Shown: positions 715-55,557, numbered from the stretch's first letter. The stretch: 64,000 nucleotides of DNA from Candidatus Uhrbacteria bacterium (GCA_030649995.1 JAUSEV010000034.1:19482-83481); one strand, 5' to 3'. Numbers and translations: made by a program. The notes: a model not told the origin generated them from the sequence alone.

Positions 715-888
715 AAAACAAGGTTAGCATTTTTCACCCTCCTTTCGCAAGCCCATCCATTCATTCCATGGGCCGTACGAAAAAAAATGATCAATTCTCA
801 CATCAAGGCTTTTACAAAAATGTTACTAACCGAAGCTATAGTGTGAGATAGTAACAGAGATGAAAAACTGAAAACAAGAAGTCAGGGG

Positions 889-1265
889 AAATAATACAGC
901 GGGGATACTCGAGTGACGAGTTCCCCGCTCTGTGGGACACGTGGCTGTACTGGACAACACGCAACTGTAGCCAGCAAAAGAACACCTCGCGGAAGCCTGC
1001 GCAGCCGTGCGGTGAACTCCAAACGATCAGAAGGAAAGAAAGTGATACGGCCCGACCAGCCAACGTCGGACCCCGTGCACGACTTAACTCTGCCGAAGAA
1101 CGCCGTAGATTACCGAAGCGAACCGCACTTGACGCTACGAAGATGAAAAAAGAAAGGTGATGCGGCGGGTCAAAGAATCGACACGCCCCGTGCAGAACAC
1201 GACGCCACCGCGGATAAGAGTGCTTAGCTTGACGTGACGCAAGTAGGTCTAACTCAACCTGAGTG
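889..1265 (-). ncRNA. Noncoding cassette F (promoter to T1 terminator), unknown RNA family
   Basis: -35 TTGACT at 1299-1294 with a 17-18 nt spacer to a TAGTTA-like -10. Two internal H2 hairpins (1146-1193, 1033-1080), each followed by a CTTTCTTT tract. Ends in T1 hairpin 898-929 (AGCGGGGA..TCCCCGCT) plus a T-rich tract. No ORF with an RBS. Confidence 0.5.
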
Positions 1266-1305
1266 CCACTAACTAACCAAATTTTCCAAAAAAAGTCAAT
1301 CATTT

Positions 1306-1655
1306 AAAATTACAGCGGGGATGATCGAGTACGATCTCCCCGCTCTGCGCAAAACTTGACGTGACACAACTCTACCTGACATAACTCCGCCGAGGCTAAC
1401 GTCTATCTCTCTGTCATTGCGAGAAGGAGTCCGCGACGACGAAGCAATCTCTCCGCAGCCATCGAAGATTGCCACGCTTCGTATGACTTCGCTCGCAATG
1501 ACAGTGGTTTGATACCCGGTCAAATTCAATGTCTGAAAAAAAGAAAGGTGATACAACAGGCTGAAATGAATCAGCCCATTCCATGCTGCGCTACGCGATA
1601 GCGAACCGTACTGGAGAAAACCTCTCCTAACATCGCAGAACGCGATGAAGCACAT
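1306..1655 (-). ncRNA. Noncoding cassette E, carrying a MITE insertion
   Basis: -35 TTGACA at 1688-1683, 17-nt spacer, -10 TAAGTA. H2-like hairpin 1536-1577 followed by CACCTTTCTTTTTTT. T1 hairpin 1314-1344 followed by GTAATTTT. Confidence 0.5.
1400..1520. mobile_element. MITE copy 1 (TIR TGTCATTGCGAG..CTCGCAATGACA)
   Basis: Near-identical to 26782-26930 apart from a ~33-nt internal indel. Terminal inverted repeats at 1412-1423 and 1492-1503. Confidence 0.6.
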
Positions 1656-1699
1656 GGAATACTTATCAAAGAACAATCGTTTTGTCAAGGCTCATATCG

Positions 1700-1830
1700 A
1701 AAAAATACAGCGGGGATCGGGAGTGAACCCGTCCCCGCTCTGCGGTGTGGTGGACGTCACGCTAGTTCACGCAACGACGCCGGACGCTACGGTATAAGAA
1801 TAAAACACCCGAAAGGATACGAATCGTGAA
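1700..1830 (-). ncRNA. Partial cassette (3' module plus T1 only)
   Basis: T1 hairpin 1709-1739 preceded by a CACGCTAGTTCACGCAACG segment homologous to the cassette B/C 3' module. No own promoter seen. Lies directly after the CDS terminator. Confidence 0.35.
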
Positions 1831-1870
1831 AAGAAAAAGGCGGGTTCGGAAAGTTTCTCCGAATCCCGCC
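1831..1870 (-). terminator. Intrinsic terminator of CDS 1903-2700
   Basis: GGCGGGATTCGGAGAAACTTTCCGAACCCGCC followed by TTTTTCTT on the minus strand. Confidence 0.65.
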
Positions 1871-1902
1871 AGTTGTTGAAGTTCCGACTGCTATCCGATC
1901 CG

Positions 1903-2700
1903 CTACTTGCGGACCGACGTGACCCGCCACTTCGTGATTTGGAACTTGCCGAACGGCCCACGGCAGCCACCGCGGAAGGAACACAGACCGATCGCCGCAC
2001 CGGCCAGGAGGAACATGTCATACACGTGACGCTCGGTGAGTCCCGCGAGCTCGTGGAGCTTGAGCGTCATGACGAACTCCGTCGTCCACTTCTTGAACTT
2101 CGGCCGCACGATGCCGACGGCCGTGCCCGGTCCCGAACCGGCCCTCTGCATGCCGCGTCTCACGTCGTGGATCCACTCCGTTCCATCCGGGAACCGCAGG
2201 AACTCGCGGTCGATGGAGAGGAATGCGAAGAGCTTGGTCGTGTCCGCCGTGGAGATCCCGCCGCGGCCAACCTTGATGCCGCGCGCGGCTTCGGCGAGGC
2301 AGGCAAGCAAGTTCATGGTCGGGAACCCCAGCAACTGCCTCTTGCTATCGGGGTCATCGGGGTCGAAATAGAGCTTCTTCGTGGCCATGTCGCGCAGGGG
2401 AGCGGTTCGATCCGGGGGCTTGCGCTCCCCGCGGATGAGCACGTCGACGATGGTCTGCGGCCCCATCGCGTCGAGCAGGAGCGGTGATCCCCCCTGATTG
2501 GCGATACCAACATCGATGACCATCACGTGCTCGCGTCGCTTGAACCGCTCGATGCCGTCCCTGGCCATGATGTCGTCGTCACCGTTGTCGCCGGGTGCCG
2601 CCTCGGCTCCTTCGGCCTCGTTCGCGCCCTCTTTGCCTTCTCCCGCTTCCGGATCCTCCGTGGGATCGTCCTCCTCGGGCTTGCCAGGTTCTCTATTCAT
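1903..2700 (-). CDS. Hypothetical protein, acidic N-terminal tail; possible RAMP (Cas5/Cas7-like) fold
   Basis: GGAGG RBS 6 nt before the ATG at 2700. G+C-rich. GFPTMNLLACLAEAARG helix motif and C-terminal glycine-rich loop GLCSFRGGCRGPFGKFQI. Own TTGACA promoter at 2969-2964 with a ~230-nt leader. Confidence 0.7.
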   Translation of the reverse strand: MNREPGKPEEDDPTEDPEAGEGKEGANEAEGAEAAPGDNGDDDIMARDGIERFKRREHVMVIDVGIANQGGSPLLLDAMGPQTIVDVLIRGERKPPDRTAPLRDMATKKLYFDPDDPDSKRQLLGFPTMNLLACLAEAARGIKVGRGGISTADTTKLFAFLSIDREFLRFPDGTEWIHDVRRGMQRAGSGPGTAVGIVRPKFKKWTTEFVMTLKLHELAGLTERHVYDMFLLAGAAIGLCSFRGGCRGPFGKFQITKWRVTSVRK

Positions 2701-2981
2701 GGAGCGCCTCCGTGGTTTCGCAAAATGGGGTGATTGGGAATGTGCTGCCTCGCTCTAACCTCACCCCAGTGAAAGGTCAAAGCCAGATGTATCAGGTCAC
2801 CATATTCCAGGTTTCCCGTCAAGAGGCATTTTGCCCTATGATATAAGGTGTTGCTGCCCCGATCCGGGTCGAGGCACCTTGCTGAACGGAACCGAACTCT
2901 ACGTAACCTGACGACGCGGAACGGTATCTTCCACATATCTTTCTTAACCAAAAACATATTCTGTGTCAAGAGCCACATATA

Positions 2982-3336
2982 TAAAATTACAGCGGGGATA
3001 CTCGAGTGACGAGTTCCCCGCTCTGTGCAGAACCGTACACCACAACAGCTAAGAAGGCTCAACGTAGCCTAACGCTGCTGAAGATTATTGGAACGCGAGA
3101 ATTGAGATGTTGCGGCGGCCCGAAGAATTCTCGGGCCGCTCCATGCGCTGGCTGACCTAAGAGAGGTGGACGCAACTCCACCGGTCCCTGCTGAATTTTA
3201 TTCAACGACTGAAGAAGAAAGTTGAAAGGTGTTACGGCGGCCTGGCGAACTGCACCAGACCGCCCCGAGCGGTACAATGCGTGACTCGAGAAAGCGTGAC
3301 GAAAGTTGACGCGACACAGGCTCACTCAACAAGGTA
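2982..3336 (-). ncRNA. Noncoding cassette D
   Basis: -35 TTGACG at 3370-3365, 17-nt spacer, -10 TACAAG. H2 hairpins at 3214-3270 and 3103-3146. T1 hairpin 2991-3022 followed by GTAATTTT. Confidence 0.5.
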
Positions 3337-3379
3337 AAGACCTTGTAACAAAGATAACGAAGACCGTCAACCCCCGAAA

Positions 3380-3600
3380 AAATTACAGCGGGGATGATCG
3401 AGTACGATCTCCCCGCTCTGTGCAACACGCTAGGTTTCCTAACTCCACGCAACGGGTCCGGGCTGGACGCAACCAAAACGCACTGAATTTTGAGAAGATG
3501 TTACGGCGGCCCGAAGAGTTCTCGGGCCGCCCCGTGGGCGACCAAACTACACAGCACTATACGGGGCGATACAAAACGCAGCGTTAGTCTATGTAGTCAA
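3380..3600 (-). ncRNA. Noncoding cassette C
   Basis: -35 TTGACG at 3633-3628, 17-nt spacer, -10 TAAGAA. H2 hairpin 3491-3537. T1 hairpin 3387-3417 followed by GTAATTTTTT. No ATG codon in the transcript body. Confidence 0.55.
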
Positions 3601-3642
3601 GTATTTCTTAGCTGAAAAAATAAAATCCGTCAACCCCTAAAA

Positions 3643-3865
3643 ATAATTCAGCGGGGATGATCGAGTGCGATCTCCCCGCTCTGCGCTAAACACGACAACA
3701 CCCTAGGTTACCCAACTCCACGCAAGCGGACCGAACTGGGCGGTACGCAAAAAGAAAGATGTTACGGCGGTCCGAAAGAATCTCGGACCGCCCCGTGCAT
3801 TACGCAAGCGAGGGTTGATTAACGGCGCGAAACACTGCTTTGCTTGACGCGACTCTGCAGCGTAA
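3643..3865 (-). ncRNA. Noncoding cassette B
   Basis: -35 TTGACC at 3898-3893, 17-nt spacer, TG-extended -10 TAAACA. H2 hairpin 3750-3798. T1 hairpin 3650-3680 followed by GAATTATTTTT. Confidence 0.5.
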
Positions 3866-3911
3866 GATCTGTTTATCAAAAAATAAAATTTTGGTCAATA
3901 TTTGAATAAAC

Positions 3912-3945
3912 AAAAAAAACGGAGCTTGATTTCTCAAAACTCCGT
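3912..3945 (-). terminator. Intrinsic terminator of the helicase gene
   Basis: ACGGAG..CTCCGT hairpin followed by T8 on the minus strand. Confidence 0.65.
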
Positions 3946-3960
3946 GAGGAAAAAGTACAA

Positions 3961-5790
3961 CTACTTATGTAGCAGCGCGAGGGTGTCTTTGACTGCGCCT
4001 TCCATGTCGAGCTTGTCGCGATACGCCGACTGCAACCACTTGGGTAGACCGGCGAACAGGAACTTGGCGAACTGGCTCGACATGAAGAAGCACACACCTA
4101 CGTCCTCCGAACTGCGAATGTTGCGGCCACGCACCTGTAGTGCCTGCATGAGCACGCGGTAACGACGTAAAGCCCACACCTGACTCGCCGGAAAGCGCGC
4201 CTCCTCAAACTGGGCTTCCGGATCCTGCGGATGCGGATAACCAGGACGGAGGAAGAAGATCACCGGCGCCGCCTGACGAGGAAGATCAATCCCCTCGCCA
4301 TACTGCGCAGCGGTTCCCACGAGCGCCTCACCCCGACCTTCCAGAAAGTGCGCCGCCACCTGCTTTGCATCAGCGCCAAACCCATAGCTCAAGGCTTCGA
4401 GACTCTCCTCACCAGCGAAGCGCAAGAACTGCTGGCGCTCCGCATCAGACACGAGAACGATCAGCGACCGATGGCCGGCGCGCGCAAACCGCTTGGCCAT
4501 GTTCACGATCTGCCGCAGCGTCCAATTGACGTTGCGATGCCGCCGTTCGTCGAACGAGAGATCACGCGCGTCCCTCGGCACGAAGATGCGGGTCTGAAGC
4601 GTCGAGAACGGAGACTCGAAGGTGCGGAATGGATGACGAATGCCCGTCTCCCATCCAAAAACTTCCGAGTTGCCGATGGTGGCCGAGTACGCCACAACGT
4701 TCGGACCGAGCGCACGCCTGATGATCGGCGCCACAAAGTACGTCCGAATGCGCAAATGGTAACGGGCGCGCTTGCGGCCGGCCACGAATTCCGGATCGTC
4801 CTGCTTTAGATAGTAGGCAACCACATACTTGAGCGGCTGCCTCTCATCTTCGCCGACCGTGGCGTAACGCAGCGAGGTCAAGATCCTGGGGATGTTGCGC
4901 GTCAGGTTTTCCAGAACCTTGAGATCGCCCTTGTTCTCGATGGGGTCGAGCCTGCCGCTCCGTACCGCTTCGACCACGGCTCGTTCCAGCGCGCGACGAT
5001 CCATCTCGTCCAAGATCGCGATCAAGGACTCGACTTCCGTCACGGTGAAGAGGGATTGGTGACGCGCCGGCCGCCGACGAGCCATTCGCCGGAAGGCCTT
5101 CACGAACCGAACCATGATGTTTGCCTGTGCGCGAGCCAAATCCTTGAGGAGACGGGCAGCGCGCAGCAGGTGGAAGTCGGTGAGCGTGTACTCGAAGATG
5201 CCGCGAGCTACCTGTGCCAGGCGATGAGCCTCATCCACGACCACGAGCGCCGGATTTTGCTCCCGCCACCGAGTCACAAGCATCCGGTTCATGAGGAAGA
5301 ACGCCGTGGTACAAGCCACGACCTGTCCTCCACTCGTTTGCTGCATCGCTTGGTATTTGGCCTGAAAGTACGGGCACGGTTCCGCACCCGCCTCCTCCGT
5401 TTCGCCGGTTTCCTGATCTACCCGATGACCGCACTGCAACATGTAGCAAGGCGAGTCAGCCGCGTTCACATCCTCGACTCCGCGATCCACGTAGTACAGA
5501 CAACGGTACTCGCTGCGACCGAACACGGTGGTCACCTGACAGGGAAACGCTTCCTGCAGCTGGGCAACCAATGCCCTGGTAGGTGTCACGTAGAAACGCG
5601 GACCCTCATGATCGGCCAGTGCCAAAAGCGCCGCCATGCCGACCGCCGTCTTGCCGTCGCCCGTCGGCATCTCGAGCAGGACTCCGTCGTCTGATCCGGC
5701 GATCGCCTCGAGCGCAGCCGCTTGATTCGGACGAACCTCCGGAAACGGGAATGCCCGGCGCAGCCGGTCAAGCGGAATGAGCTTACTCAT
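3961..5790 (-). CDS. DinG/XPD (Rad3)-family FeS DNA helicase
   Basis: Walker A EMPTGDGKT and DEAH box VVDEAHRL. Four-Cys insertion between them (RCLYY, SPCYMLQCGH, EPCPYF). C-terminal GTAAQYGEGIDLP and FFLRPGYPHPQDP motifs. GGGAGG RBS before the ATG at 5790. Own TTGACG box at 5889-5884. Confidence 0.85.
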   Translation of the reverse strand: MSKLIPLDRLRRAFPFPEVRPNQAAALEAIAGSDDGVLLEMPTGDGKTAVGMAALLALADHEGPRFYVTPTRALVAQLQEAFPCQVTTVFGRSEYRCLYYVDRGVEDVNAADSPCYMLQCGHRVDQETGETEEAGAEPCPYFQAKYQAMQQTSGGQVVACTTAFFLMNRMLVTRWREQNPALVVVDEAHRLAQVARGIFEYTLTDFHLLRAARLLKDLARAQANIMVRFVKAFRRMARRRPARHQSLFTVTEVESLIAILDEMDRRALERAVVEAVRSGRLDPIENKGDLKVLENLTRNIPRILTSLRYATVGEDERQPLKYVVAYYLKQDDPEFVAGRKRARYHLRIRTYFVAPIIRRALGPNVVAYSATIGNSEVFGWETGIRHPFRTFESPFSTLQTRIFVPRDARDLSFDERRHRNVNWTLRQIVNMAKRFARAGHRSLIVLVSDAERQQFLRFAGEESLEALSYGFGADAKQVAAHFLEGRGEALVGTAAQYGEGIDLPRQAAPVIFFLRPGYPHPQDPEAQFEEARFPASQVWALRRYRVLMQALQVRGRNIRSSEDVGVCFFMSSQFAKFLFAGLPKWLQSAYRDKLDMEGAVKDTLALLHK

Positions 5791-5950
5791 GGATTCCTCC
5801 CACGCAGAACTTGGTCTGCGATTATCTGTCGTTGATGATGAAAAGGCCAAAAGCAAAATCATCTGACCATGAAATCTTCTTCTCGTCAAGAGCTGAAAAA
5901 AGCAAGAAAAATATCAACTCGCTCGTGAATGAAAAAATAAATACGATTCC

Positions 5951-5980
5951 ATCATCTTCTTCCGACCGTGAATAGATGAT
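5951..5980. promoter_or_regulatory. 30-nt palindrome A (ATCATCTTCTTCCGACCGTGAATAGATGAT)
   Basis: Inverted arms ATCATCT/AGATGAT around CGACCG. Lies ~60 nt upstream of the helicase -35 box. Same motif at 7174-7208 and 58739-58768. Confidence 0.45.
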
Positions 5981-6071
5981 AGAATTCTTGAAAGTTTTTT
6001 TAATCTCATCAATAAACTTTCACTGCTTATAGATAATACAAGCAAGGCATTCTAAAACTTATCTCAAAATA

Positions 6072-6515
6072 AAATAATACAGCGGGGATGATCGAGTTGC
6101 GATCTCCCCGCTCTGTGATGCGCTAAGCCGTGCCCTAGAGTACAAAACCGGACTGGGCTTTGGCTTACTTCGGGACACGAAGTGTAGAAGAAAGTTACGG
6201 CGGCCGGAGACGAGCTCCGACCGCCCCGTGCGCGACTCGACGGAAGTAAACGCGACCTGACCGTGGCGTGGGGTACGAATCCGTACCGAACGCCGAAAAG
6301 TCTCATCACATCACACCCGTGAAAGAAAGTTGCGGCCCCGAGTTGCCTCGGGGCCCCGTGCTGGAGCTTGCAAGACCACACCCAGCGTGACGGGGCAGAA
6401 CTACACGCCACGAAACAATGGTATGCGGAGGAAGAAAAAAGGACTTGCGGCGAGCCGATCAAAACCGCATCGACCCACCCCGTACAAAACTCTTGGCAAC
6501 CCTAGCTTCCATTAT
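6072..6515 (-). ncRNA. Noncoding cassette A
   Basis: -35 TTGACA at 6548-6543 with a TAAGGA-like -10. H2 hairpins at 6321-6360 and 6186-6231. T1 hairpin 6081-6112 followed by GTATTATTTTATTTT. Confidence 0.5.
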
Positions 6516-6557
6516 CTTCATCCTTAAACACAAATCTCTTTCTGTCAACCCTCAACT

Positions 6558-6583
6558 AAAAAAAACCACAGGTTGCCCTGCAG
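6558..6583 (-). terminator. Intrinsic terminator of CDS 6603-7094
   Basis: CTGCAGG-GCAA-CCTGTGG hairpin (two G-U pairs) followed by T8 on the minus strand. Confidence 0.55.
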
Positions 6584-6602
6584 TTACCATCAGAGAAAAG
6601 CT

Positions 6603-7094
6603 CTACCTGTTGCGGAAGGTCACGACAATATCGTTCCGACCCCACGTCCTCGGCTTGGGCGACGATTGGTCGAGATCGACAAGCCACAACCCCCACCGAC
6701 CGGACGATTGAAAGAGCACGGGGCCGCACCAGACCTTGGAATGCGGAGGCTGCTCACGAAAGCGCCGTTCGTAGGGTGGAATCGTCGAGTACGTCGCCTG
6801 CTGGTTGTCCGAGAGGATTCGTTCCTTGTTCTGGATGAGCCAGACGAGCCAAGCGGCCGTGTTGCCTTCGGCGTGGAGGCGGATCGACTCCGATTGGATG
6901 TCTCGGAGTGCCGATCGTCGCGCGTAGGAATGCAGCGTGAGAGCTTCAAACGTCCTACCTAATTCGCCACGCATGAAGTCCCAAGTTCTAAGAGCGGCTT
7001 CGACATACCCCAGGTCGAGTTCTTGTTCCACGCGGGCGATCAACTCCTTCGGAGTTACCTCTGGAACCGTGATCCTGTTCGTGTTCGATTTCAT
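6603..7094 (-). CDS. Hypothetical protein (163 aa), no recognisable domain
   Basis: GGAGGTGA RBS before the ATG at 7094 (MKSNTNRITVPE..). G+C-rich. Own TTGACA box at 7149-7144, 17-nt spacer, -10 TAAGGT. Confidence 0.65.
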   Translation of the reverse strand: MKSNTNRITVPEVTPKELIARVEQELDLGYVEAALRTWDFMRGELGRTFEALTLHSYARRSALRDIQSESIRLHAEGNTAAWLVWLIQNKERILSDNQQATYSTIPPYERRFREQPPHSKVWCGPVLFQSSGRWGLWLVDLDQSSPKPRTWGRNDIVVTFRNR

Positions 7095-7173
7095 CCGCTC
7101 ACCTCCTTTCAAGTAATGACACCTTAACACAAATAGGGCGCGTTGTCAAGCATGGGCCGTCTCACCAGTACGG

Positions 7174-7208
7174 ATGATGCCATCTTTTTCCGACCGGGAA
7201 AAGATGAT
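7174..7208. promoter_or_regulatory. Palindrome B (ATGATGCCATCTTTTTCCGACCGGGAAAAGATGAT)
   Basis: Same arms and core as palindromes A and C. Sits ~25 nt upstream of the -35 box of CDS 6603-7094. Confidence 0.45.
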
Positions 7209-7348
7209 AACGTTCACAAATGATGAGCATCTATAAAAACTATAGCCTTATTTTAGGTGCTTCAAGCAAAGCTTCGACAAACTTCTTTTTTGAATGAAAA
7301 TTCAACGTCGATACATTCATTATCAAAATAATTGCCATCCGTCAACAT

Positions 7349-7708
7349 TTAGCTCATTCCTCCCCCCATCTCCGACAACTCCTCTTCTTCCCGTTTCTTT
7401 CTGTGTTTTTTAGGTGTGTCGGTTTCTTCTTTTTTCTCCTCTGATCGTTTATGCAAATATGACAGCAACTGTTTTCCTCCTTCGGCGATGAATCCAAGAT
7501 ATTGCGCGGAGGCGCCGAGTTTTTCGCCGATCATCATGATCGCTCGCTCAAATCGTGCCACTTTTTCTCGCGTGTCACTCACCACTTCATTGGTTTGACG
7601 GACGAGCGTTGCAATCTCATACAATGCCCAGCACAAAAACACCGCCACAAACCCGATCGCGATGGCACTAATGAAATAAAGAAGCTCGAGAGAGGAGAGG
7701 GAAAACAT
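7349..7708 (-). CDS. Small membrane-anchored coiled-coil protein (DUF948-like)
   Basis: N-terminal TM helix, helical middle region and a K/E-rich tail. Backbone-like G+C. Confidence 0.45.
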   Translation of the reverse strand: MFSLSSLELLYFISAIAIGFVAVFLCWALYEIATLVRQTNEVVSDTREKVARFERAIMMIGEKLGASAQYLGFIAEGGKQLLSYLHKRSEEKKEETDTPKKHRKKREEEELSEMGGGMS

Positions 7709-7718
7709 ATTTAATGCA

Positions 7719-7946
7719 TTATATCATATCTGAAAAATCTTGCGCGGAAATATTTGCCTCTCGCAAAATACTATGTAGCAATCCTCGTCCAATATCCTCG
7801 CCGCCATGTCTGGGCACCAACGTCGTTCGACCATCCGGATGTTTAAAAAAGATATGCGAACCCCTTGTTCTGATCTCCTCAAAACCTACACGTTTCAAAA
7901 CCCGTATGACATCCCTCGCCCGAACGGACGGGAGGCGCGGACTCAT
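7719..7946 (-). CDS. hicA: HicA-family toxin
   Basis: VIRVLKRVGFEEIRTRGSHIFFKHPDGRTTLVPRH matches the HicA/YcfA signature. 4-nt overlap with the upstream hicB. Confidence 0.8.
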   Translation of the reverse strand: MSPRLPSVRARDVIRVLKRVGFEEIRTRGSHIFFKHPDGRTTLVPRHGGEDIGRGLLHSILREANISAQDFSDMI

Positions 7947-8191
7947 ACCCGAACCGTTTCTACCCCGACAAACGTCGGCTCATAGGAAAAACCTCGAATC
8001 AAATTTTTATATTGACTATCCGTTTGCGCTACTTCTAAACAGAGAGCGATGGCTTCATGCAGTCTCTTTTGCAATTGCTCTAACGTCTTGGCTTGAGTAT
8101 GACAGCCGGGCAGACCTGGGACGGAGGCCATAAAAAATCCGTCTTCGTCGCGCTGGATAATCACCTTAAATTCTTTCATCTTTTTGGACAT
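7943..8191 (-). CDS. hicB: HicB-family antitoxin (UPF0150 fold); start uncertain
   Basis: FKVIIQRDEDGFFMASVPGLPGCHTQAKTLEQL is typical of the HicB N-domain. Confidence 0.7.
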   Translation of the reverse strand: MSKKMKEFKVIIQRDEDGFFMASVPGLPGCHTQAKTLEQLQKRLHEAIALCLEVAQTDSQYKNLIRGFSYEPTFVGVETVRV

Positions 8192-8250
8192 AGATTCTCT
8201 GAAGAGAGTACTCCCTAATCTTGGCTGGGTCAATTTTTTGAATGTACAAC

Positions 8251-10721
8251 TCACGTCGTGCGCGCCTCTGCGCCAAATTTTTCTTTCATCTGTTTCTTGA
8301 TCTGTTGCATGGCCTTGTCCACCTCTTCCGTTTCCAGCGTTCGCTCCGGTGATAAAAAGGTGAGATGAAACGCGAAGGATTTTTTATCCGCCGGGATTCC
8401 TTGTCCCGCATACGTATCAAACCATTCGACGTGATGGAGAAGCGGGCTGACCGCGTTCATGGCTTGCATCAACGTCTGAACTTCCAACTCGCGCGCGACG
8501 ATGAACGCCAAATCTCGCTTGGCTTCCGGATACAGCGGCAAAGGTTCGTACCGTTTTGCGGTGGTCGCCAGACGAAAAATATTTTCAAGCGGTAAATCAA
8601 TCATGGCGATTCGACCTTCGATTTTGAAACGCTCCGCAATCAACGGATGAACCTCACCCACCGTCCCCAATAAATGCTCTCCCAAAAACGCCTGCACCGT
8701 GCGCCCCGGATGCCAAAATTCGTCATCGATCAACGTCCGCCACGCAATTCTCGATTCTCCATTCTCTATTCTCAATTCTCGATACAAATATTCGACAAAC
8801 CCCTTCGCCTCGCGCCACGCTCGATCATCGCCCAAAAACGCCGCCCCAAGCTCCAACTGTTCATCCGGTAACTCTGTAAGCTGCAACCTGTCACCTGTAA
8901 CCTGTTTTGGATAGTACACGTGCGCGACTTCAAAAATCTTTTGTTGATGGAACCGTTCTTGATTTTCCGCCACGACTTGCAAAAGTGATGGCAAAAGCGT
9001 GGTGCGCATGAATGCAAAATCCGCGGTCAACGGATTGGCCACGCGCAACATATTTCTTGATTCATAGCCTGCCTTGGCTAACAATTCACTTGAAACAAAA
9101 GAATACGTGTACACCTCGGTGAGTCCGGCGCCTTTGGCAACGTGACGCGTGCGTTCTTCCCACACCAATTCAGGATCTCGATCACGCGTGGCCAATCCCA
9201 CGGGAAACACAGCCGGCAGATTCGCGTACCCGTGCACGCGCGCGATTTCTTCCACCAGATCGCGACCGGATTCGATATCGTGATCGCGCCAGTATGTGAC
9301 AGTAACTCGTAACTCGTAACTCGTTCGGAAAAACCCAGACGCTGTAGCGTGTCATACATTTCTTTGACAGGAAGTTCAACACCGATGAGGGCGTTCACTT
9401 CCGCGGTTTTGATGGAAAATTTCTTTGGCTGATATTTTTTTGTTTGAGAATCAAAAACCTTGCTCGCGACCTGACCGCCCGCAAGCTCCAAACACAGTTC
9501 AATGGCACGCGCGATGGCCAATGGCGGCGCTTCAGTCGAAAGTCCTTTTTCGAACAACGCTTGAGCGCCGGAATAGAGATTCAACTTTCGCGCGGTTCGA
9601 CGGATCGATACAGGATCAACGGTCGCGGCTTCAAACAAAATCGAGGTGGTATCCTTGGTGACCCCGGTCGCCTCCCCTCCCATCACTCCCACGATATCGA
9701 TCGGTTGACGTTCATCGGCAACGATCAACATCGTGTCATCCAGTTGATATTCCTTCCCATCCAACGCCAACATTTTTTCTCCCACTCGCGCTATTCTAAC
9801 TTCCAGTTTTGGCTGTGAGCTGTAAGCTGTAAGCTGTAAGCTGTCATACACGTGCATCGGTTGACCAATCTCGAGCATGACATAGTTCGTAATATCCACC
9901 ACGTTGTTGATCGGTCTAACGCCAGAAGAGATTAAGCGACGTTTGAGCCACCAAGGTGACGGTCCAACTTTGACGCCGTCGATTTGCACCGCCATGAAAC
10001 GCGGACAGAGGGTTTTGTCGGCGATGCGAACGGAAACCCCCGTCAAAGCTCCGACACGCTCGCTTTGACTCCCCCTTATCAGGGGGATATTCAAACTTCC
10101 TGCCCACAAAAATTTTCTCTTCAAAATCGCGGCCGCCTCGCGCGCCAACCCTGCGATACTCATCGCATCCGGACGGTTGGTCGTGACCTCCACATCCATC
10201 ACCACATCATCCGCCACACCAAGAAGATCTCCGAGCGGCATACCCGCCTTCAGTTTGGCTTCAGGTAAAGCTTTGTTCAAATCCAAAATCTCGCGCTCGA
10301 TATGTGGGAAAATATCAAAAAGGCCGATCTCATTTGCCGCGCAGATCATCCCCTCGCTTTTGATCCCACGAATTTCCGCCGATTTCAATTCGACCGGTTC
10401 TCCCTCGCCATGCCAACGCACCATGGCCCCGATCTTCGCGACGGCAACCCATTGATCAACCGCAAGATTTGATCCGCCGCAAACGATGGACAATGTTTTT
10501 CCTCCTACATCCACCAATGCCAATTTGAGCTTGTCTGCGTTTGGATGCGTCTTGATCTCGACCACACGACCCACGACAATCTGTCTCAGATGTTCCCCTT
10601 GCGGATATAAACGCTCTATCCCAGGCCCTGACAAAGAAATCCGCGATGCAAATTCCTCGGGCGTAATGCCTTTTAGATCCACATATTCTTTCAACCAGTT
10701 GTAGGAAGCGAGTAAGTTCAT
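8251..10721 (-). CDS. pheT: Phenylalanyl-tRNA synthetase beta subunit, reading frame broken at a heptamer tract (9301-9324)
   Basis: The N-terminal ~465 aa (tRNA-binding, B3/4 and B5 domains) lie in the frame of ORF 9078-10721. The remainder (TVTYWRDHDIESGRDLVEEIARVHGYANLP..) lies in the frame of ORF 8251-9255. The switch falls inside (GAGTTAC)x3. Confidence 0.9.
8747..8781. repeat. Heptamer tandem repeat (ATTCTCN)x5 inside the pheT CDS
   Basis: attctcg attctcc attctct attctca attctcg. Encodes RELRIENGESRI. Confidence 0.85.
8868..8905. repeat. 7-nt-periodic tract inside the pheT CDS
   Basis: gtaactc tgtaagc tgcaacc tgtcacc tgtaacc. Confidence 0.7.
9301..9324. repeat. Heptamer tandem repeat (GTAACTC)x3 at the pheT frameshift
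   Basis: Three perfect units. The two pheT reading frames meet here. Confidence 0.9.
9812..9846. repeat. Heptamer tandem repeat (GCTGTRA)x5 inside the pheT CDS
   Basis: gctgtga gctgtaa x3 gctgtca. Encodes LQLTAYSSQ. Confidence 0.85.
10070..10087. repeat. Short GC palindrome inside the pheT CDS
   Basis: TCCCCCTTATCAGGGGGA, translated as PLIRGS. Confidence 0.7.
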
Positions 10722-16395: not shown

Positions 16396-19389
16396 TCAAA
16401 TCTTCTTAAACTCGCAAATGTTCTTAAAGTCACAAAAGCGACAAACAAAAGGATCCGGCGTGGGCGTAAAATCGGAACGTAAAATTTCGTCCATGCGATC
16501 CGTCACTTTTTCCATGAAATCCTCACGATCTTTCCCGATCAGCGGCTCCACATCCATCATCTGCCAGTCCAAAACGTACACATACGCCAAACGGCCGACC
16601 TTGACCCCTTTTTCCTCCAAAGCGATCTGATAGAGATGAAGCTGTTCCTTGTCCTCGGACGTGAGTTTCTCTTTTGCCCGTCCGGTTTTGTAATCAAACA
16701 CGGCCACGCGATCATCGGGCATACAGTCGATGCGATCGATTTTTCCCTTGAGCGAATGCATACCCAACACCAACGTAAAATCTTTTTCGATCTCGAGCAT
16801 ATCCGGCGCGGATTCCGTACAAGCTTGCAGAAAATGTTTGATCGCTTTTTTTCCGTTCGCGCGATACTCATCATGCTGCGCGCGAGAGTCATACCACTCG
16901 TCTATCCACGCCTCTTCAAAAATTTCCATAGCCTCTTCTTCGGTAACGCGAAATCCGGAGGTAGGCTGTGAGCTGTGAGCTGTGAGCTGTGAGCTGAATA
17001 AGTCTCCCTGCACGGATTTCATGCGCATCAGATGCAGATTCGATATCCGCTGCAAGGCGAGGTGAACGGATTGACCGAAACTTTTTTGATAGGAACCGAA
17101 TTTTGGAATGCGATAAATATGTTCAAATTTATATTGCAAAGGGCATTTCCGAAAGGCCGCCAGCTGGGTAAAACTGAACCGCCGCTTGAGCGGATAGAGG
17201 GGCGGCGATACCTCATCCGGAGCGAGATGCGTTTCCGGAGGACGCAAAGCGCGCGCTTCATCATCGGATGAAGCGGGCAGATCCTGTACAACAAAACCCG
17301 CTTCCGCAAAAAAAGGCGACGGTTTTTTCTGACGCGCGCCGCCATAAGAACTGGCGCCGGTGAGGGTGAGCGTATTTTTTGCGCGAGTCAAAGCCACATA
17401 AAATAATCGACGTTCCTCTTCCAAATGCACATCCCCTTCCGGCAACCGTTCCTGCACCAATCCATCAGGCAACGGAATGGTCTCGCTTCTGGCGCGTGTG
17501 GGAAAACGCTGCTCAACAAGTGAAGCGACAAATACGTGTGAAAATTCCAAACCCTTGGCCGCGTGCACCGTGAAAATTTTTACCATGTCCGGTCCGGCGT
17601 CTGGGTCCGATTCCAGCGCCCCCTCTTCCCCGCTCTCCATCTCCAGACGCAACTCTTCCAAAAATCCCCGTAAATTTGGACCGTGCGCGGATGTTTCATA
17701 CCGTTGCACGCGATCGGCGAAGGCATGAAGGAACTGAAGCGCCTCCCGACGTTCCCGCTCCGGCAGTCGAAGCACCGTCGCCAAGTATCCTGTTTTTTCC
17801 AGCATCCATTGAAAAACTTTGAACGGCGGTTCGCGGCGCGCCGTTTCGGACAAAAGTTCAACCGTACTCAACATTTTTTCGGCCAGTCGCGCGCCGTCGC
17901 CGCTCACGGTCAATTCCGGATTCCGACGCGCCGCCTCCTTTACGGCAAGCCACAACGGCAACCCTTTGCGATTGGCGAAATGAGAAAATTCCGCCACATC
18001 CTTTTGCGGAAACGGATAGCACGCCATATGCAATGCTCGCCAAACAGACGAGGATTCGTGGTACCCATCAAGCAAAGACAAAAACGCGATGACGTCCAAC
18101 ACGACCGGCTTTGAGTAGAGTCCGCGCAACGCCAAAAACTGAAAAGGAATTCCATGACGGGCCAAAGCGCGCACAAACGGCTCGGCCCCGTCATTGGAAC
18201 GCACGAGAATGGCAAAATCATTCCAACTCGTCTTCGTTTCCTGTTTTTTCCATTCCTTGATGCGTTCGATAACGGCGTCCGCCTCATCTTCCACGCTCTG
18301 TTTCCATAACACTTCCACGCTTCCTCCTTCCCCGCGCACCGCCTCAAGCGCCTTGGAAAGACCGGCATCTTTAAGCTGAACTTCCAAACGATGTGGATCG
18401 TTTTTTTGGATAAATTGATAGGCGTGCGACAGAATTTCCTTGTGTGAACGATAATTTTTTGTGAGAGCGATCGCTTTTGCCTCCGGAAAATCATCGCGAA
18501 ACTGTAAAATGTTGGCGAGCGAGGCCCCGCGAAATCTGTAAATGGCTTGATCGTCGTCGCCAACCACCGTCAAATTCCGCTTCTCGCCGGCCAGTAATTT
18601 TAACAATTCATACTGCGCCCCGTTGGTGTCTTGAAACTCGTCCACCATAATGAAATGAAATTGCGCCCGATATTTTTCTAGCACGGCCGGTCGCTCGCGA
18701 AACAACCGTAACGTCTCCAAAATCAAATCTCCAAAATCCAAACACCCTTCTTCGAGCAAGATGCGACGATACGCAAAATACAAATCCACGAGTTCCTGCA
18801 AACGTTTTTTCTCGCCGATGATAATTTCACTGTCACCATCCAGCGTCAAATTTTGTAAAAATGACAAATAGCGCTCCGGCGTGATGCCTTCATCTTTCGC
18901 TCGCAAAATGTGCTGAATCAACGCTCGCAAAAATTTAACGGGATTGCCGAGCGGACGATAATGGTCAAGCGGCAATTCATCGAGATGACGCTTGAGTAAG
19001 AGCCACGCGTCGGTTGGCGTGAGCAAACGAAATTGATTGGGAAGTCCTATCTCGAGTCCATGCGCCTCGAGTACACGCTGACAAAATCCGTGAAATGTCG
19101 AAATCCAAAAATCGTAGGTGCCGGTCGGCAACAGTTGCAAAATCCGATCCTCCATCTCCCCCGCCGCTTTATCGGTGAACGTAAGCGCGAGTAAATTTTC
19201 CGTTTTGATTCTCCCCCTTTCGAAGGGGGAGTTAGCGGGGGTTGGAGCCGTTGACAACAAATGCACATACCGTCGCGTCAACACCGTCGTTTTCCCCGTC
19301 CCTGCCCCAGCCACAATCAAAAGCGGCCCGTCACGATGAGTCACCGCCTGAAGCTGCGCTTCATTCAATGTATCCAACAAATTTTCCAT
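16396..19389 (-). CDS. UvrD/PcrA-type SF1 helicase fused to a C-terminal PD-(D/E)xK nuclease with a Cys cluster
   Basis: AGAGTGKTT, DEFQDTN, VGDDDQAIYRFRGA, TVHAAKGLEF and ALTRAK helicase motifs. Nuclease IDRID..VFDYKTG and CRFCDFKNIC at the C-terminus. Confidence 0.9.
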   Translation of the reverse strand: MENLLDTLNEAQLQAVTHRDGPLLIVAGAGTGKTTVLTRRYVHLLSTAPTPANSPFERGRIKTENLLALTFTDKAAGEMEDRILQLLPTGTYDFWISTFHGFCQRVLEAHGLEIGLPNQFRLLTPTDAWLLLKRHLDELPLDHYRPLGNPVKFLRALIQHILRAKDEGITPERYLSFLQNLTLDGDSEIIIGEKKRLQELVDLYFAYRRILLEEGCLDFGDLILETLRLFRERPAVLEKYRAQFHFIMVDEFQDTNGAQYELLKLLAGEKRNLTVVGDDDQAIYRFRGASLANILQFRDDFPEAKAIALTKNYRSHKEILSHAYQFIQKNDPHRLEVQLKDAGLSKALEAVRGEGGSVEVLWKQSVEDEADAVIERIKEWKKQETKTSWNDFAILVRSNDGAEPFVRALARHGIPFQFLALRGLYSKPVVLDVIAFLSLLDGYHESSSVWRALHMACYPFPQKDVAEFSHFANRKGLPLWLAVKEAARRNPELTVSGDGARLAEKMLSTVELLSETARREPPFKVFQWMLEKTGYLATVLRLPERERREALQFLHAFADRVQRYETSAHGPNLRGFLEELRLEMESGEEGALESDPDAGPDMVKIFTVHAAKGLEFSHVFVASLVEQRFPTRARSETIPLPDGLVQERLPEGDVHLEEERRLFYVALTRAKNTLTLTGASSYGGARQKKPSPFFAEAGFVVQDLPASSDDEARALRPPETHLAPDEVSPPLYPLKRRFSFTQLAAFRKCPLQYKFEHIYRIPKFGSYQKSFGQSVHLALQRISNLHLMRMKSVQGDLFSSQLTAHSSQPTSGFRVTEEEAMEIFEEAWIDEWYDSRAQHDEYRANGKKAIKHFLQACTESAPDMLEIEKDFTLVLGMHSLKGKIDRIDCMPDDRVAVFDYKTGRAKEKLTSEDKEQLHLYQIALEEKGVKVGRLAYVYVLDWQMMDVEPLIGKDREDFMEKVTDRMDEILRSDFTPTPDPFVCRFCDFKNICEFKKI
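16965..16996. repeat. Heptamer tandem repeat (GCTGTGA)x4 inside the helicase-nuclease CDS
   Basis: Four perfect units. Encodes SSQLTAHSSQ. Confidence 0.9.
19209..19250. repeat. ~40-nt GC palindromic element in frame in the helicase CDS
   Basis: CTCCCCCTTTCGAAGGGGGAGTTAGCGGGGGTTGGAGCC, ~85 percent identical by eye to 58421-58460. Confidence 0.75.
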
Positions 19390-26781: not shown

Positions 26782-26930
26782 CGTCTATCTCTCTGTCATT
26801 GCGCGGAGGAGTCCGCGACGACGAAGCAATCTCTCCGCAGCCATCTGCTCCAGAGATGCGCTCACCTCAGGCGAGGGAGATTGCCACGCTTCGTATGACT
26901 TCGCTCGCAATGACAGTGATTTGATACCCC
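26782..26930. mobile_element. MITE copy 2 (TIR TGTCATTGCG..CGCAATGACA)
   Basis: Homologous to 1400-1520 with an extra ~33-nt internal segment. Confidence 0.6.
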
Positions 26931-26956: not shown

Positions 26957-26990
26957 CTCATTACTCATTACTCATTACTCATTACGCATT
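26957..26990. repeat. Heptamer tandem repeat (CTCATTA)x4
   Basis: Intergenic, immediately downstream of the GT4 gene stop. Confidence 0.85.
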
Positions 26991-33216: not shown

Positions 33217-33231
33217 ATGATGTAGAAAAAT

Positions 33232-33323
33232 GAGTAATGAGTAATGCGTAATGCGTAATGAGTAATGCGTAATGAGTAATGAGCCATTCAGATCGCATTA
33301 CGCATTACTCATTACGCATTACG
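33232..33323. repeat. Heptamer array (RGTAATG)x7 facing four inverted units: a hairpin built from heptamers
   Basis: gagtaat/gcgtaat units at 33232-33280. Reverse-complement units cattacg/cattact at 33295-33323. Confidence 0.85.
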
Positions 33324-41752: not shown

Positions 41753-41788
41753 GCAAGTTGTGAGTTACTGATTACTAGTTACGAGTTA

Positions 41789-42910
41789 CTAGTTACTAGC
41801 TCCTTCTTCACCCGTCCCCTCTTCTTTTGCCTTACGCAACGACAGTCCCAAACGATGATTTTCCGGATCGATATTGATAATACGAAACTCCAACTCATCT
41901 CCCATGTGCGCGATTTCGTTAACATCCTTGACCGGTTTGGCCGCCAATTCGCTGATGTGGGCTAAACCGTGAATATCCGGATCAAGCTCAACAAACAAAC
42001 CAAAAGGATTGATTTTGAGCACGCGGCCCTTGACCCACTGATTCACCTGATACTTTTGCGCGACGCCTTTCCACGGATCATCAATCAATTTTTTCATGGA
42101 CAAAAAAATCTTTGAACCCTCAACGTTGATCACTTCCGCTCGAACATGATCGCCAACCTTAAGCACATCGTGCGGATGGTCAATGCGTTGCCAAGCAATT
42201 TCCGAAATGTGAACCAGTCCTTCCAAATTTTGATCAAAACGAATGAATGCGCCGAAATCGGTCACGGCCGTCACATCGCCTTCCACTCGATCCCCGACTT
42301 TATACTTGGCGAGAACGGATTCTTGCTTGGTTTCCCACACGGCTTTCTCTGACACAACGATTTTTTCTTCTTCTTCGCTCACGTCCAAAATCTTTACCTC
42401 CATGGTGGCACCAACCAATGTTTTTAATTTTTCATGAATCTTGGCTTTTTCTCCGCCGGACACGCGCGGATAGTGGTTGGGGGAAAGTTGGGAAACGGGA
42501 ATAAAGGCCGGGACATTTTCCACGCGAGTGATGAGCCCCCCCTTGTTCGCATCTAAAATTTTGACGCTCAATACCGTAGCTTTCGTCAACAATTCCTTAA
42601 TTTTATCCCAAGAACGCTTGCGACCGGCACCCTTTAACGATAATTCCAATTCTCCAAATTCATTATCGAGTTCGACGACGGTTGCTTCCACCTCGTCCCC
42701 AACTCGCAAATCGATATTTTTATCCAATTCCGGCCCGCGAACGAGTCCGATGGCCAAACCGCCGATATCGCATCGTACTTCATTTCGCCCGACCGCGATC
42801 ACCGTACCATGCACCACGTCCCCCACTTTTGGGAAAGCGACCTGCGTATCATCCGTAAAAAGCGCTGACATGTTTCCTCCAACCCGTTCCTTAACCGTAT
42901 CGTTTGTCAT
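41789..42910 (-). CDS. rpsA: Ribosomal protein S1-like protein (four S1 domains)
   Basis: Four repeats of the GxxVxGxV..GAFV/GLFV S1 pattern. Confidence 0.8.
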   Translation of the reverse strand: MTNDTVKERVGGNMSALFTDDTQVAFPKVGDVVHGTVIAVGRNEVRCDIGGLAIGLVRGPELDKNIDLRVGDEVEATVVELDNEFGELELSLKGAGRKRSWDKIKELLTKATVLSVKILDANKGGLITRVENVPAFIPVSQLSPNHYPRVSGGEKAKIHEKLKTLVGATMEVKILDVSEEEEKIVVSEKAVWETKQESVLAKYKVGDRVEGDVTAVTDFGAFIRFDQNLEGLVHISEIAWQRIDHPHDVLKVGDHVRAEVINVEGSKIFLSMKKLIDDPWKGVAQKYQVNQWVKGRVLKINPFGLFVELDPDIHGLAHISELAAKPVKDVNEIAHMGDELEFRIINIDPENHRLGLSLRKAKEEGTGEEGASN

Positions 42911-54127: not shown

Positions 54128-54549
54128 GGGGATGAATCAGCATCGACGACGAACCTTTCACCATCATGCAAGCCGAGGGCGTTGGTCACCTCGTAAATCT
54201 CACCGACACAATGACAACTGCCAACGTCATTTCAAAAGTGAAGAACTTCATCGCTTCGGTGATGCAAGTTCCGACCTTTGCTCCGGCCCTCGCTTAAACG
54301 CGATTGTTGCCGGACCGATCCCCTCTTTGGCGTCTCAACGAAGAGGATCGATCGTCATACATTGAGGCTTGATCTCGCATCCGTTCTCGATTGCGAGATG
54401 ACAGGCCACGAGAACTGGCGCTTCCATGCCTCGTCCGTTCCCTGAAGGTGGCGTAAGATTCCGCCGAAAGGCGGATTGAGCGGTCTAAGCTTGTGAATGA
54501 ATGCGGGTTGAGTTTCGCTCGGACGGGGGTGCGATACCCCCCATCTCCA
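54128..54549 (+). ncRNA. ssrA: tmRNA
   Basis: 5' GGGGATGA pairs with 3' CATCTCC-A including the G3-U pair. T-arm GGGGGTGCGATACCCCC. Tag frame ends ..QVPTFAPALA-TAA. CCA is not encoded. Confidence 0.85.
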
Positions 54550-54638
54550 TAGTAAAATAAGCTTCTTAGCCTTTAGCTTCTTAGCTTGTTAGTTCAAATC
54601 TAAGAAGCTAAAAAGCTGACGCCTAAGAAGCTGATCTC

Positions 54639-55266: not shown

Positions 55267-55464
55267 ATGAAACTCAAAACCCACAAAACCGTCGCCAAAC
55301 GCTTGATCGTTACAAAGAGCGGAAAATTGCTCAAGCGACATGGCGGCCAAGACCATTTTAACAGTCGCGATTCCGGAACGATCACCCGCAAAAAACGTCG
55401 CGATCAAACCGTGAACGCCTCGTACGTCAGAACCCTTAAATCGCTCATGCCACATCACAAGTAA
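55267..55464 (+). CDS. rpmI: Ribosomal protein L35
   Basis: MKLKTHKTVAKRL.. Confidence 0.9.
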   Translation: MKLKTHKTVAKRLIVTKSGKLLKRHGGQDHFNSRDSGTITRKKRRDQTVNASYVRTLKSLMPHHK

Positions 55465-55473
55465 ATAGGAATT

Positions 55474-55557
55474 GGTAACTAGTAACTCGTAACTAGTGAC
55501 TAACTTCTGATTACTAGTTACTGATTACTGATTACTAATTACGAGTTACTCATTACT
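55474..55557. repeat. Twelve consecutive 7-nt units (NGTAACT/GATTACT type) between rpmI and rplT
   Basis: ggtaact agtaact cgtaact agtgact aacttct gattact agttact gattact gattact aattacg agttact cattact. Confidence 0.85.

Follow-up and report, generated by a model that had tools for sequence, protein, structure and literature searches.

What kind of system brings together a helicase gene, a small unannotated protein gene and a crowd of near-identical RNA hairpins in the genome of a member of the Patescibacteria? The question is raised by an island of about 6.5 kb in a 64-kb stretch of DNA from Candidatus Uhrbacteria bacterium (GCA_030649995.1 JAUSEV010000034.1:19482-83481). We refer to the whole stretch as the window and count all coordinates from its start; the genes and predicted RNAs of the island lie on the minus strand. 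An initial annotation, made from the sequence alone, had described seven paralogous hairpin-bearing cassettes interleaved with three protein genes, and could not place the arrangement in any described system. Our analysis assigns a probability of about 0.9 to the island being a VIPR (Viral Interference Programmable Repeat) system, borne on the chromosome and belonging to the helicase-associated type common in Patescibacteria.

This identification came about because a profile of the small protein matched a solved structure, 36pp, whose name in the PDB led to two 2026 bioRxiv preprints (10.64898/2026.04.26.720920 and 10.64898/2026.04.26.720927; cited below as the VIPR preprints). The preprints describe a VIPR system as a small ancestral RAMP protein (Vipr) together with vrRNAs, guide RNAs of 9–16 pentanucleotide repeats whose 3' end is a structured and conserved tail. 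Vipr itself is a minimal RAMP with an RRM core, a G-loop and a thumb. The repeats are built of a conserved GGY and a hypervariable NN in alternation; one Vipr protomer sits on each repeat with the GGY buried, and the NN bases read double-stranded DNA with every third target base skipped. Transcription is repressed by the R-loop triplex that results. Further features by which such a system is recognised are a locus free of CRISPR arrays and cas genes, an accessory vap gene predicted to act on DNA, and vrRNAs of about 100 nt that co-purify with Vipr. VIPR does fit the island, and the preprints also name helicase accessories and YNNNG repeats. An RNA-guided module, as had been suggested, is the best reading of the locus, and the structured RNAs belong with the genes of the RAMP-like protein and the helicase.

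Two classes of hairpin and a pentanucleotide code

The hairpins of the initial annotation were readily recovered. A scan of the 64 kb for AGCGGGGA-N13-18-TCCCCGCT returned exactly seven matches (898-929, 1314-1344, 1709-1739, 2991-3022, 3387-3417, 3650-3680 and 6081-6112), with none outside the island and a shuffle expectation of 0, so that the seven copies, originally written with N15/16 in the middle, are all present and confined to the island. Each is followed 3' on the minus strand by a T-rich tract of the GTAWTTTT type, in agreement with the tract reported there, and for six of the seven a TTGAC box on the minus strand (at 6548, 3898, 3633, 3370, 1688 and 1299) stands 216–436 nt upstream, also as claimed. 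Cassette C does indeed lack any ATG. A second hairpin class, which had been overlooked, occurs in 11 copies inside the cassettes and has the form CACGG-GGCGG…CCGCC-GTAAC followed by a pyrimidine-rich stretch. In the terminal class 97% of cells are paired, four pairs carry compensatory changes, and the covariation score was reached by none of 500 shuffles; in the internal class seven of the ten pairs show double changes, the stem sequences varying by compensatory changes among the 11 copies. A comparison with Rfam, run at the gathering thresholds and again at E≤1, yielded nothing in the island except two sub-threshold chance matches, and no ribozyme family at E≤1. The sole gathering-level Rfam match in the window is a transfer-messenger RNA gene at 54128-54552.

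Also overlooked was a periodicity in the minus-strand DNA upstream of every hairpin of both classes, where a G followed by a pyrimidine recurs each five bases (NNN-G-Y). Across the three non-coding blocks of the island, G-T co-occurrence on the minus strand at lags of 5, 10, 15 and 20 is 2.6–4 times the expectation, as against about 1 in the controls (the plus strand, the helicase coding sequence and the remaining 56 kb), and the period-5 statistic stands at z = 8.7, 12.0 and 7.1 for the three blocks relative to dinucleotide-preserving shuffles. With a strict tract defined as at least seven of eight consecutive period-5 positions being G-Y, we found ten, all on the minus strand within 936-6426, and zero elsewhere in the window on either strand. 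Parsing anchored on the hairpins resolves 18 tracts of 5–16 pentanucleotides, each continuing into a linker of about 9 nt that ends in CAC(G/A)G and then into a hairpin; a conserved structured 3' tail, of one or the other class, caps the repeat tracts.

Within the units, base use at positions 1–3 is near-uniform; position 4 is occupied by G in 81% of cases and by C in 18%, and at position 5 T accounts for 75% and C for 21%. The canonical GGY is absent from the island's repeats, whose form is NNN-G-Y; this is the YNNNG variant, listed with NNNGG and NNNNG among the alternative repeats in the Methods of the VIPR preprints. The recurrence of TTGCGT, put at nine or more minus-strand copies in the initial annotation, is real (nine copies between 959 and 3802) and follows from the 5-nt periodicity, because eight of the nine lie inside periodic tracts. 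The variable triplets showed no depletion of stop codons, which we examined as a test for a contiguous codon-like reading.

The functional units of the island are therefore not seven cassettes but 18 predicted vrRNAs, each consisting of an NNN-G-Y tract and a hairpin tail, arranged in seven minus-strand units with TTGAC boxes; the 31-nt hairpin is merely the terminal tail, which doubles as the terminator of each unit. Earlier readings of the RNAs as tRNA-like units, as type III toxin-antitoxin RNA repeats, as retron-like RNAs, or as antisense to the -35 boxes (the last prompted by an enrichment of GTCAAGT) were dropped after the periodicity and the Vipr match had been found.

The small protein is a Vipr-family RAMP

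The gene at 1903..2700 (minus strand; NCBI Q7N87_03430) encodes 265 aa with no significant match in Pfam, PADLOC or NCBIfam. A word-indexed search found only three close relatives; an exhaustive profile search gathered 703 family representatives, mostly of 190–260 aa, and all 59 sampled members of the family matched phrog_4652 (function unknown). Compared with the sequences of the PDB, the family profile matched one solved structure, 36pp ('SUSP1 Vipr protein'), with E 4.7e-10 over residues 5-192. An AlphaFold 2 model built on a 59-sequence alignment reached a pLDDT (predicted local distance difference test) of 86, up from 45 with a 3-sequence alignment, and a Foldseek search of the PDB with this model gave 105 matches at E≤1e-3, of which the best 50 were all CRISPR RAMPs; the RAMP matches include Csm3, Cmr4, type VII Cas7 and gRAMP. 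Among viral predicted structures Foldseek found three significant matches of about 195–250 aa, one of them annotated as a RAMP. A G-loop-like IGLCSFRGGCRGPFGKF occupies residues 237-253. We conclude that the protein, which had been called possibly RAMP-like, is a minimal RAMP of the Vipr family.

The repeat-binding residues offer a further comparison. According to the VIPR preprints, R138 and W178 of SUSP1 Vipr hold G2, R179 holds Y3, and H17 and D177 hold G1. Profile alignment places R199, F242 and R243 of the island protein at R138, W178 and R179, with R199 invariant and R243 nearly invariant across the family, and D77 and S241 at H17 and D177, positions that both vary within the clade. Conserved contacts to G2 and Y3 combined with variable contacts to G1 would suit a repeat that fixes G-Y alone and leaves free the place once held by G1; this link is only suggestive, since the Vipr of locus L012 keeps Asp at the equivalent of D177 and yet uses NNNGY. 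Residues 1-45 (2566-2700) form an acidic, Gly-rich N-terminal extension of low model confidence, which is also found in the 82%-identical protein of locus L002 while most family members are without it.

The helicase and the related loci

The accessory (vap-like) gene at 3961..5790 (minus strand) encodes a 609-aa helicase of superfamily 2. Its earlier assignment to DinG/XPD is borne out by Pfam (DEAD, Helicase_C_2 and ResIII), PADLOC and sequence motifs, which place it in the XPD/Rad3/DinG family. Its relatives share, without variation, the residues of Walker A, DEAH and motif VI, and four conserved cysteines between Walker A and Walker B (C97, C115, C120 and C139) suggest an iron-sulfur (Fe-S) domain.

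Related loci were gathered through homologues of Vipr and of the helicase, and the named hosts are all Patescibacteria. In L001, L004, L005, L007/L008, L011 and L012/L013, both Vipr and the helicase are accompanied by NNNGY tracts that lie on the same strand and have hairpin tails; the helicase adjoins Vipr in six other independent loci, or seven contexts including the window. Gene order differs among these loci and their flanks are unrelated housekeeping genes, which indicates that Vipr, helicase and tracts travel as a module. The tract-plus-tail architecture is also found beside the 82%-identical Vipr homologue of L002 and beside others, of 34–47% identity, in further genomes. Thus, of the proposed tie between the three proteins and the cassettes, the part concerning Vipr and the helicase stands in relatives, while the third open reading frame (ORF3, see below) does not co-occur.

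The size of the guide set varies among the loci. L004 is a minimal version with three vrRNAs, whereas L001, a Logan contig, carries about 31–35 vrRNAs of the same code in 3.6 kb (2950-6620), in several promoter-terminator blocks and with at least three tail-hairpin subtypes, a repertoire far above the examples in the text of the preprints. A search of IMG/VR yielded only two weak relatives of this Vipr clade. One viral contig in that collection (L014, UViG_3300048074_000056; region 5445-7438) encodes a distant 188-aa Vipr-like protein amid NNN-GC periodic tracts, with a PD-(D/E)XK nuclease gene and a family A DNA polymerase gene after it; the nuclease may be an accessory or simply belong to the replication module of the phage.

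Relation to the described VIPR types

The VIPR preprints distinguish seven types, with predicted nucleases or helicases in types III to V and nucleases only in III and V. Because the island has a helicase partner, we infer by elimination that it would belong to type IV. The helicase-carrying type of the preprints shares with the island a Vipr and a helicase accessory, and YNNNG repeats are mentioned in the Methods.

Type II, represented by Escherichia phage SUSP1 and a Pseudomonas fulva prophage, allows a closer comparison. It shares with the island a small single-RRM RAMP detectable by profile, tandem pentanucleotide guides with a conserved G-pyrimidine, hypervariable bases and a structured 3' tail, and vrRNA genes that flank the protein genes on both sides, with no CRISPR array and no adaptation genes. 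It differs in its repeat (GGY/NN, as against NNN-G-Y, or xGY, in the island), in its accessory (the DNA-binding Vap1 rather than an XPD/DinG-type helicase), and in its scale and setting, with about four vrRNAs on a phage compared with 18 on a Patescibacteria chromosome. The island is real and rare, and a further example of the kind described in the 2026 preprints; it is uncharacterised in its particular form, which combines the xGY code, an Fe-S XPD/DinG helicase partner, a large guide set and a chromosomal setting in Patescibacteria.

Weighing the assignment

Several observations weigh against the assignment to VIPR. The Uhrbacteria protein as a single query against the sequences of the PDB misses SUSP1 Vipr, and the family profile is needed to find it. 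The tail in the SUSP1 clade is a pseudoknot whereas the island has plain hairpins of two classes (no pseudoknot search was made), and several of the tracts (G1, D2, B1 and A1) are short or degenerate. The neighbours of the island are housekeeping and toxin-antitoxin genes rather than a recognisable prophage, while VIPR is mostly borne by phages or proviruses; such a setting is not strictly required, as 25.5% of VIPR systems are chromosomal according to the preprints. Members of the helicase family are also known from loci that lack Vipr (L009/L010).

The search for targets likewise failed to lend support. Under six rules (abN, Nbc, abc, abcN, abcNN and abNN), in which two or three bases are read with a period of 3, 4 or 5, the best matches of 42 guides on both strands of the window and L001-L006 (230 kb) were no better than those of shuffled guides. 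IMG/VR and JGI collections were also scanned for exact gapped patterns, in seven viral and two metagenome scans, some with guides from a JGI-derived locus, and all nine gave 0 matches; exact matching over 8–12 units is stringent, and the relevant elements may lie outside these collections. The target searches thus neither support nor refute targeting.

The alternative that survives best is that Vipr needs only the vrRNAs for a complete silencing system, next to which a Rad3/XPD-like helicase happens to lie as a Patescibacteria repair gene. In line with this, the helicase family counts at least 138 clusters in Candidate Phyla Radiation (CPR) genomes, often in near-complete chromosomes, and the SUSP1 VIPR is described in the preprints as repressing without any helicase. 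In the lineage of L009 and L010, the helicase (at 8001-9827 of those loci) is 50% identical to that of the window and has no Vipr homologue or periodic tract nearby; here a system has either decayed or the helicase forms a lineage that stands alone. Because of this lineage, the coupling of the helicase to Vipr is inferred from synteny only. However, in the seven contexts of Vipr-helicase adjacency the strand is always the same while flanks and orders differ, the helicase has vrRNA genes to either side, its G+C is raised like that of vipr, and the preprint counts helicases among VIPR accessory genes, which together make a bystander helicase improbable.

Another possibility is that the island is a type IV CRISPR-Cas system that has degenerated or is minimal, with the hairpins as diverged CRISPR repeats and the intervening DNA as long spacers. 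The initial annotation had heard such an echo in the parts list, and type IV-A, with its Csf complex and CasDinG/Csf4, does share with the island a RAMP ribonucleoprotein and an XPD/DinG-family helicase, and the lack of a nuclease, of Cas1-Cas2 and of any adaptation module. The best match of the helicase in a defence library is the PADLOC model PDLC01439 'typeIV_DinG', at full length with E 1.4e-40; at the same time, the remaining typeIV_DinG models reach only E≥4e-5, and the curated Csf4 model (NCBIfam TIGR03117 cas_csf4) gives 15.4 bits against a cut-off of 400, so that the helicase, with its four conserved cysteines and probable Fe-S domain, falls short of the curated model. Besides such a helicase, type IV calls for an array processed by Cas6/Csf5 and for a multisubunit complex of Csf1 (Cas8-like), Csf2 (Cas7) and Csf3 (Cas5). 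Repeat searches of the window found no CRISPR repeat-spacer array, and the would-be spacers are themselves 5-nt periodic, giving a gapped, pentanucleotide-periodic guide unlike that of type IV-A. Besides the helicase models, the island proteins had no Cas matches in Pfam, PADLOC or NCBIfam, those of Cas5, Cas6 and Cas8 included; the only RAMP gene is a small single-RRM one, and its profile matches Vipr by sequence. We therefore regard a type IV relic as highly improbable. Scarcely credible is a third account, which takes the hairpins for generic terminators or repetitive extragenic palindromic (REP)-like repeats, the periodicity for a compositional accident and the genes for unrelated neighbours: although the terminal hairpins resemble intrinsic terminators and a repeat of the miniature inverted-repeat transposable element (MITE) kind is inserted in the island, the hairpins are confined to the island, the periodic tracts to the island and to one strand, and the tract-plus-tail architecture recurs beside the diverged Vipr homologues (34–47% identical) and that of L002.

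Arrangement of the predicted vrRNA genes

All three coding sequences of the island are G+C-rich (0.645, 0.61 and 0.58, as against 0.51 in the remainder of the window), and each has its own TTGAC box (2822, 5889 and 7149), a GGAGG-type ribosome-binding site and a terminator made of a hairpin and a T-run, just as the initial annotation described. We assigned the TTGAC-box promoters and the bulged terminators by hand; a promoter/terminator scanner based on the E. coli consensus did not recover them.

The predicted vrRNAs, all on the minus strand, are given here in the order of transcription. Unit G (6081..6548), upstream of the helicase gene, starts at a TTGACA box at 6548 and comprises four vrRNAs: G1 (6449..6508), with a weak tract of 5 units (6508-6484) and an internal tail at 6479-6449; G2 (6334..6419), with 9 NNNGY units (6419-6375) and an internal tail at 6355-6334; G3 (6199..6294), with 12 units (6294-6235) and an internal tail at 6225-6199; and G4 (6081..6181), with 8 units (6181-6142) and the terminal tail and terminator at 6112-6081.

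Between the helicase gene and vipr lie four further units. Unit F (3650..3898, TTGACC box at 3898) holds two vrRNAs, F1 (3766..3861; 8 units, 3861-3822; internal tail 3792-3766) and F2 (3650..3749; 12 units, 3749-3690; terminal tail 3680-3650). Unit E (3387..3633, TTGACG box at 3633) is a diverged duplicate of unit F and likewise holds two, E1 (3505..3590; 10 units, 3590-3541; internal tail 3531-3505) and E2 (3387..3486; 12 units, 3486-3427; terminal tail 3417-3387). The tails of the two units are still alike and their guide tracts are not, which suggests that the repertoire grows by duplication and divergence. Unit D (2991..3370, TTGACG box at 3370) holds three vrRNAs, namely D1 (3236..3333; 12 units, 3333-3274; internal tail 3264-3236), D2 (3115..3184; 6 units, 3184-3155; internal tail 3139-3115) and D3 (2991..3086; 11 units, 3086-3032; terminal tail 3022-2991). 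A leader vrRNA directly upstream of vipr (2855..2969) has a TTGACA box at 2969, 8 units (2925-2886) and a tail hairpin at 2876-2855, and between it and the vipr ribosome-binding site stands the second box, TTGACG at 2822.

Downstream of vipr, beyond its terminator hairpin (1839-1870), comes vrRNA C (1709..1793; 8 units, 1793-1754; terminal tail 1739-1709), which is without a promoter box of its own, as is its counterpart in L002. Unit B (1314..1688, TTGACA box at 1688) holds two vrRNAs parted by a palindromic insertion: B1 (1555..1644) has 8 degenerate units (1644-1605) and a diverged internal tail at 1580-1555, and B2 (1314..1403) has 10 units (1403-1354), the last 7 of them perfect NNNGT, and a terminal tail at 1344-1314. 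Unit A (898..1299, TTGACT box at 1299) closes the island with three vrRNAs: A1 (1163..1276), with up to 16 degenerate units (1276-1197) and an imperfect internal tail at 1190-1163; A2 (1049..1141), with 12 units (1141-1082) and an internal tail at 1072-1049; and A3 (898..1013), with 15 units (1013-939) and a terminal tail at 929-898.

The insertion between B1 and B2 (1400..1525, minus strand) is a MITE-like palindromic element that we place outside the system. The palindrome, of about 120–150 nt (…CACTGTCATTGCGAGCGAAGTC…CTCGCAATGACAGAGA), has a near-identical second copy 25 kb off, at about 26800-26930, with a 30-nt indel.

ORF3 and the surroundings of the island

The third coding sequence, ORF3 (6603..7094, minus strand; 163 aa, Q7N87_03440), is a doubtful member of the system. 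It is the sole member of its own cluster among 5.8e9 clusters, it has no homologue in any of the related loci, and comparison with Pfam, PADLOC and NCBIfam returned nothing significant (a sub-threshold DUF5919 at E 0.071), so that its inclusion as a component in the initial annotation is not upheld. ORF3 is tied to the system only by an imperfect palindrome of about 30 nt, ATCATCT…CGGTCGG…AGATGAT, which is 90% identical upstream of the helicase gene (5953-5981) and of ORF3 (7181-7209), and which could be a common operator. A second shared family lies at 5926-5955 and 7291-7320. An extra TTGACG box occurs at 7345, about 200 nt upstream of the ORF3 box at 7149, with no vrRNA tract between the two.

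The island is set between a DUF433/DUF5615 pair on one side and a HicAB toxin-antitoxin pair and pheT on the other. The two toxin-antitoxin pairs that bracket it, DUF5615/PIN-like with DUF433 (99-714) and HicA/HicB (7719-8254), give the region a small defence-island character. Elsewhere in the window, tandem arrays of heptanucleotides (AGTAACT, GTAACTC, AATGAGT, CTCATTA, GCTGTAA, GCTGTGA and others) in 3–8 copies are found at no fewer than 16 sites, for example 9302-9324, 9812-9844, 16965-16996, 26957-26990, 33229-33323, 41763-41799 and 55460-55557, some of them inside mechanically called long open reading frames.

A possible mode of action

Extrapolating from the work on SUSP1, one Vipr protomer would bind each pentanucleotide, bury its G-Y and present the variable bases, and the resulting filament would read the double-stranded DNA of competing mobile elements, or of phages, by a gapped code and form an R-loop there. 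The helicase may then be recruited to the bound site and extend interference or silencing without a nuclease, by analogy with CasDinG of type IV-A. Interference by binding together with helicase action, as in type IV-A, is the plausible mode. The repertoire itself may expand when a vrRNA unit is duplicated and its variable bases then diverge.

Since the repeat leaves each protomer three free bases and the G1-contacting positions of SUSP1 Vipr are not conserved here, a different reading rule is conceivable. That this lineage reads DNA unlike the published two-base, one-skip code, and that through its Fe-S-bearing XPD/DinG helicase partner it connects VIPR with the effector modules of type IV CRISPR-Cas more closely than any other living system, is an idea that we consider doubtful and put forward only tentatively.

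Implications

VIPR is a newly reported form of RNA-based DNA recognition and a proposed ancestor of the CRISPR RAMP effectors, and its mechanism has been studied for type II only. With the island and its relatives, the uncharacterised form that has a helicase partner gains an example that is compact and defined in sequence. It has an xGY repeat and a natural set of guides of unusual size (18 in the island, about 31–35 in L001), in a host group with few known defence systems. For annotation, period-5 G-Y tracts beside a small unannotated open reading frame are a reliable flag for VIPR systems. The island also bears on the reading of a repeat that leaves three bases free for each protomer, on what a helicase contributes to a gapped R-loop, and on whether type IV CRISPR-Cas and VIPR may share the ancestry of their effectors.

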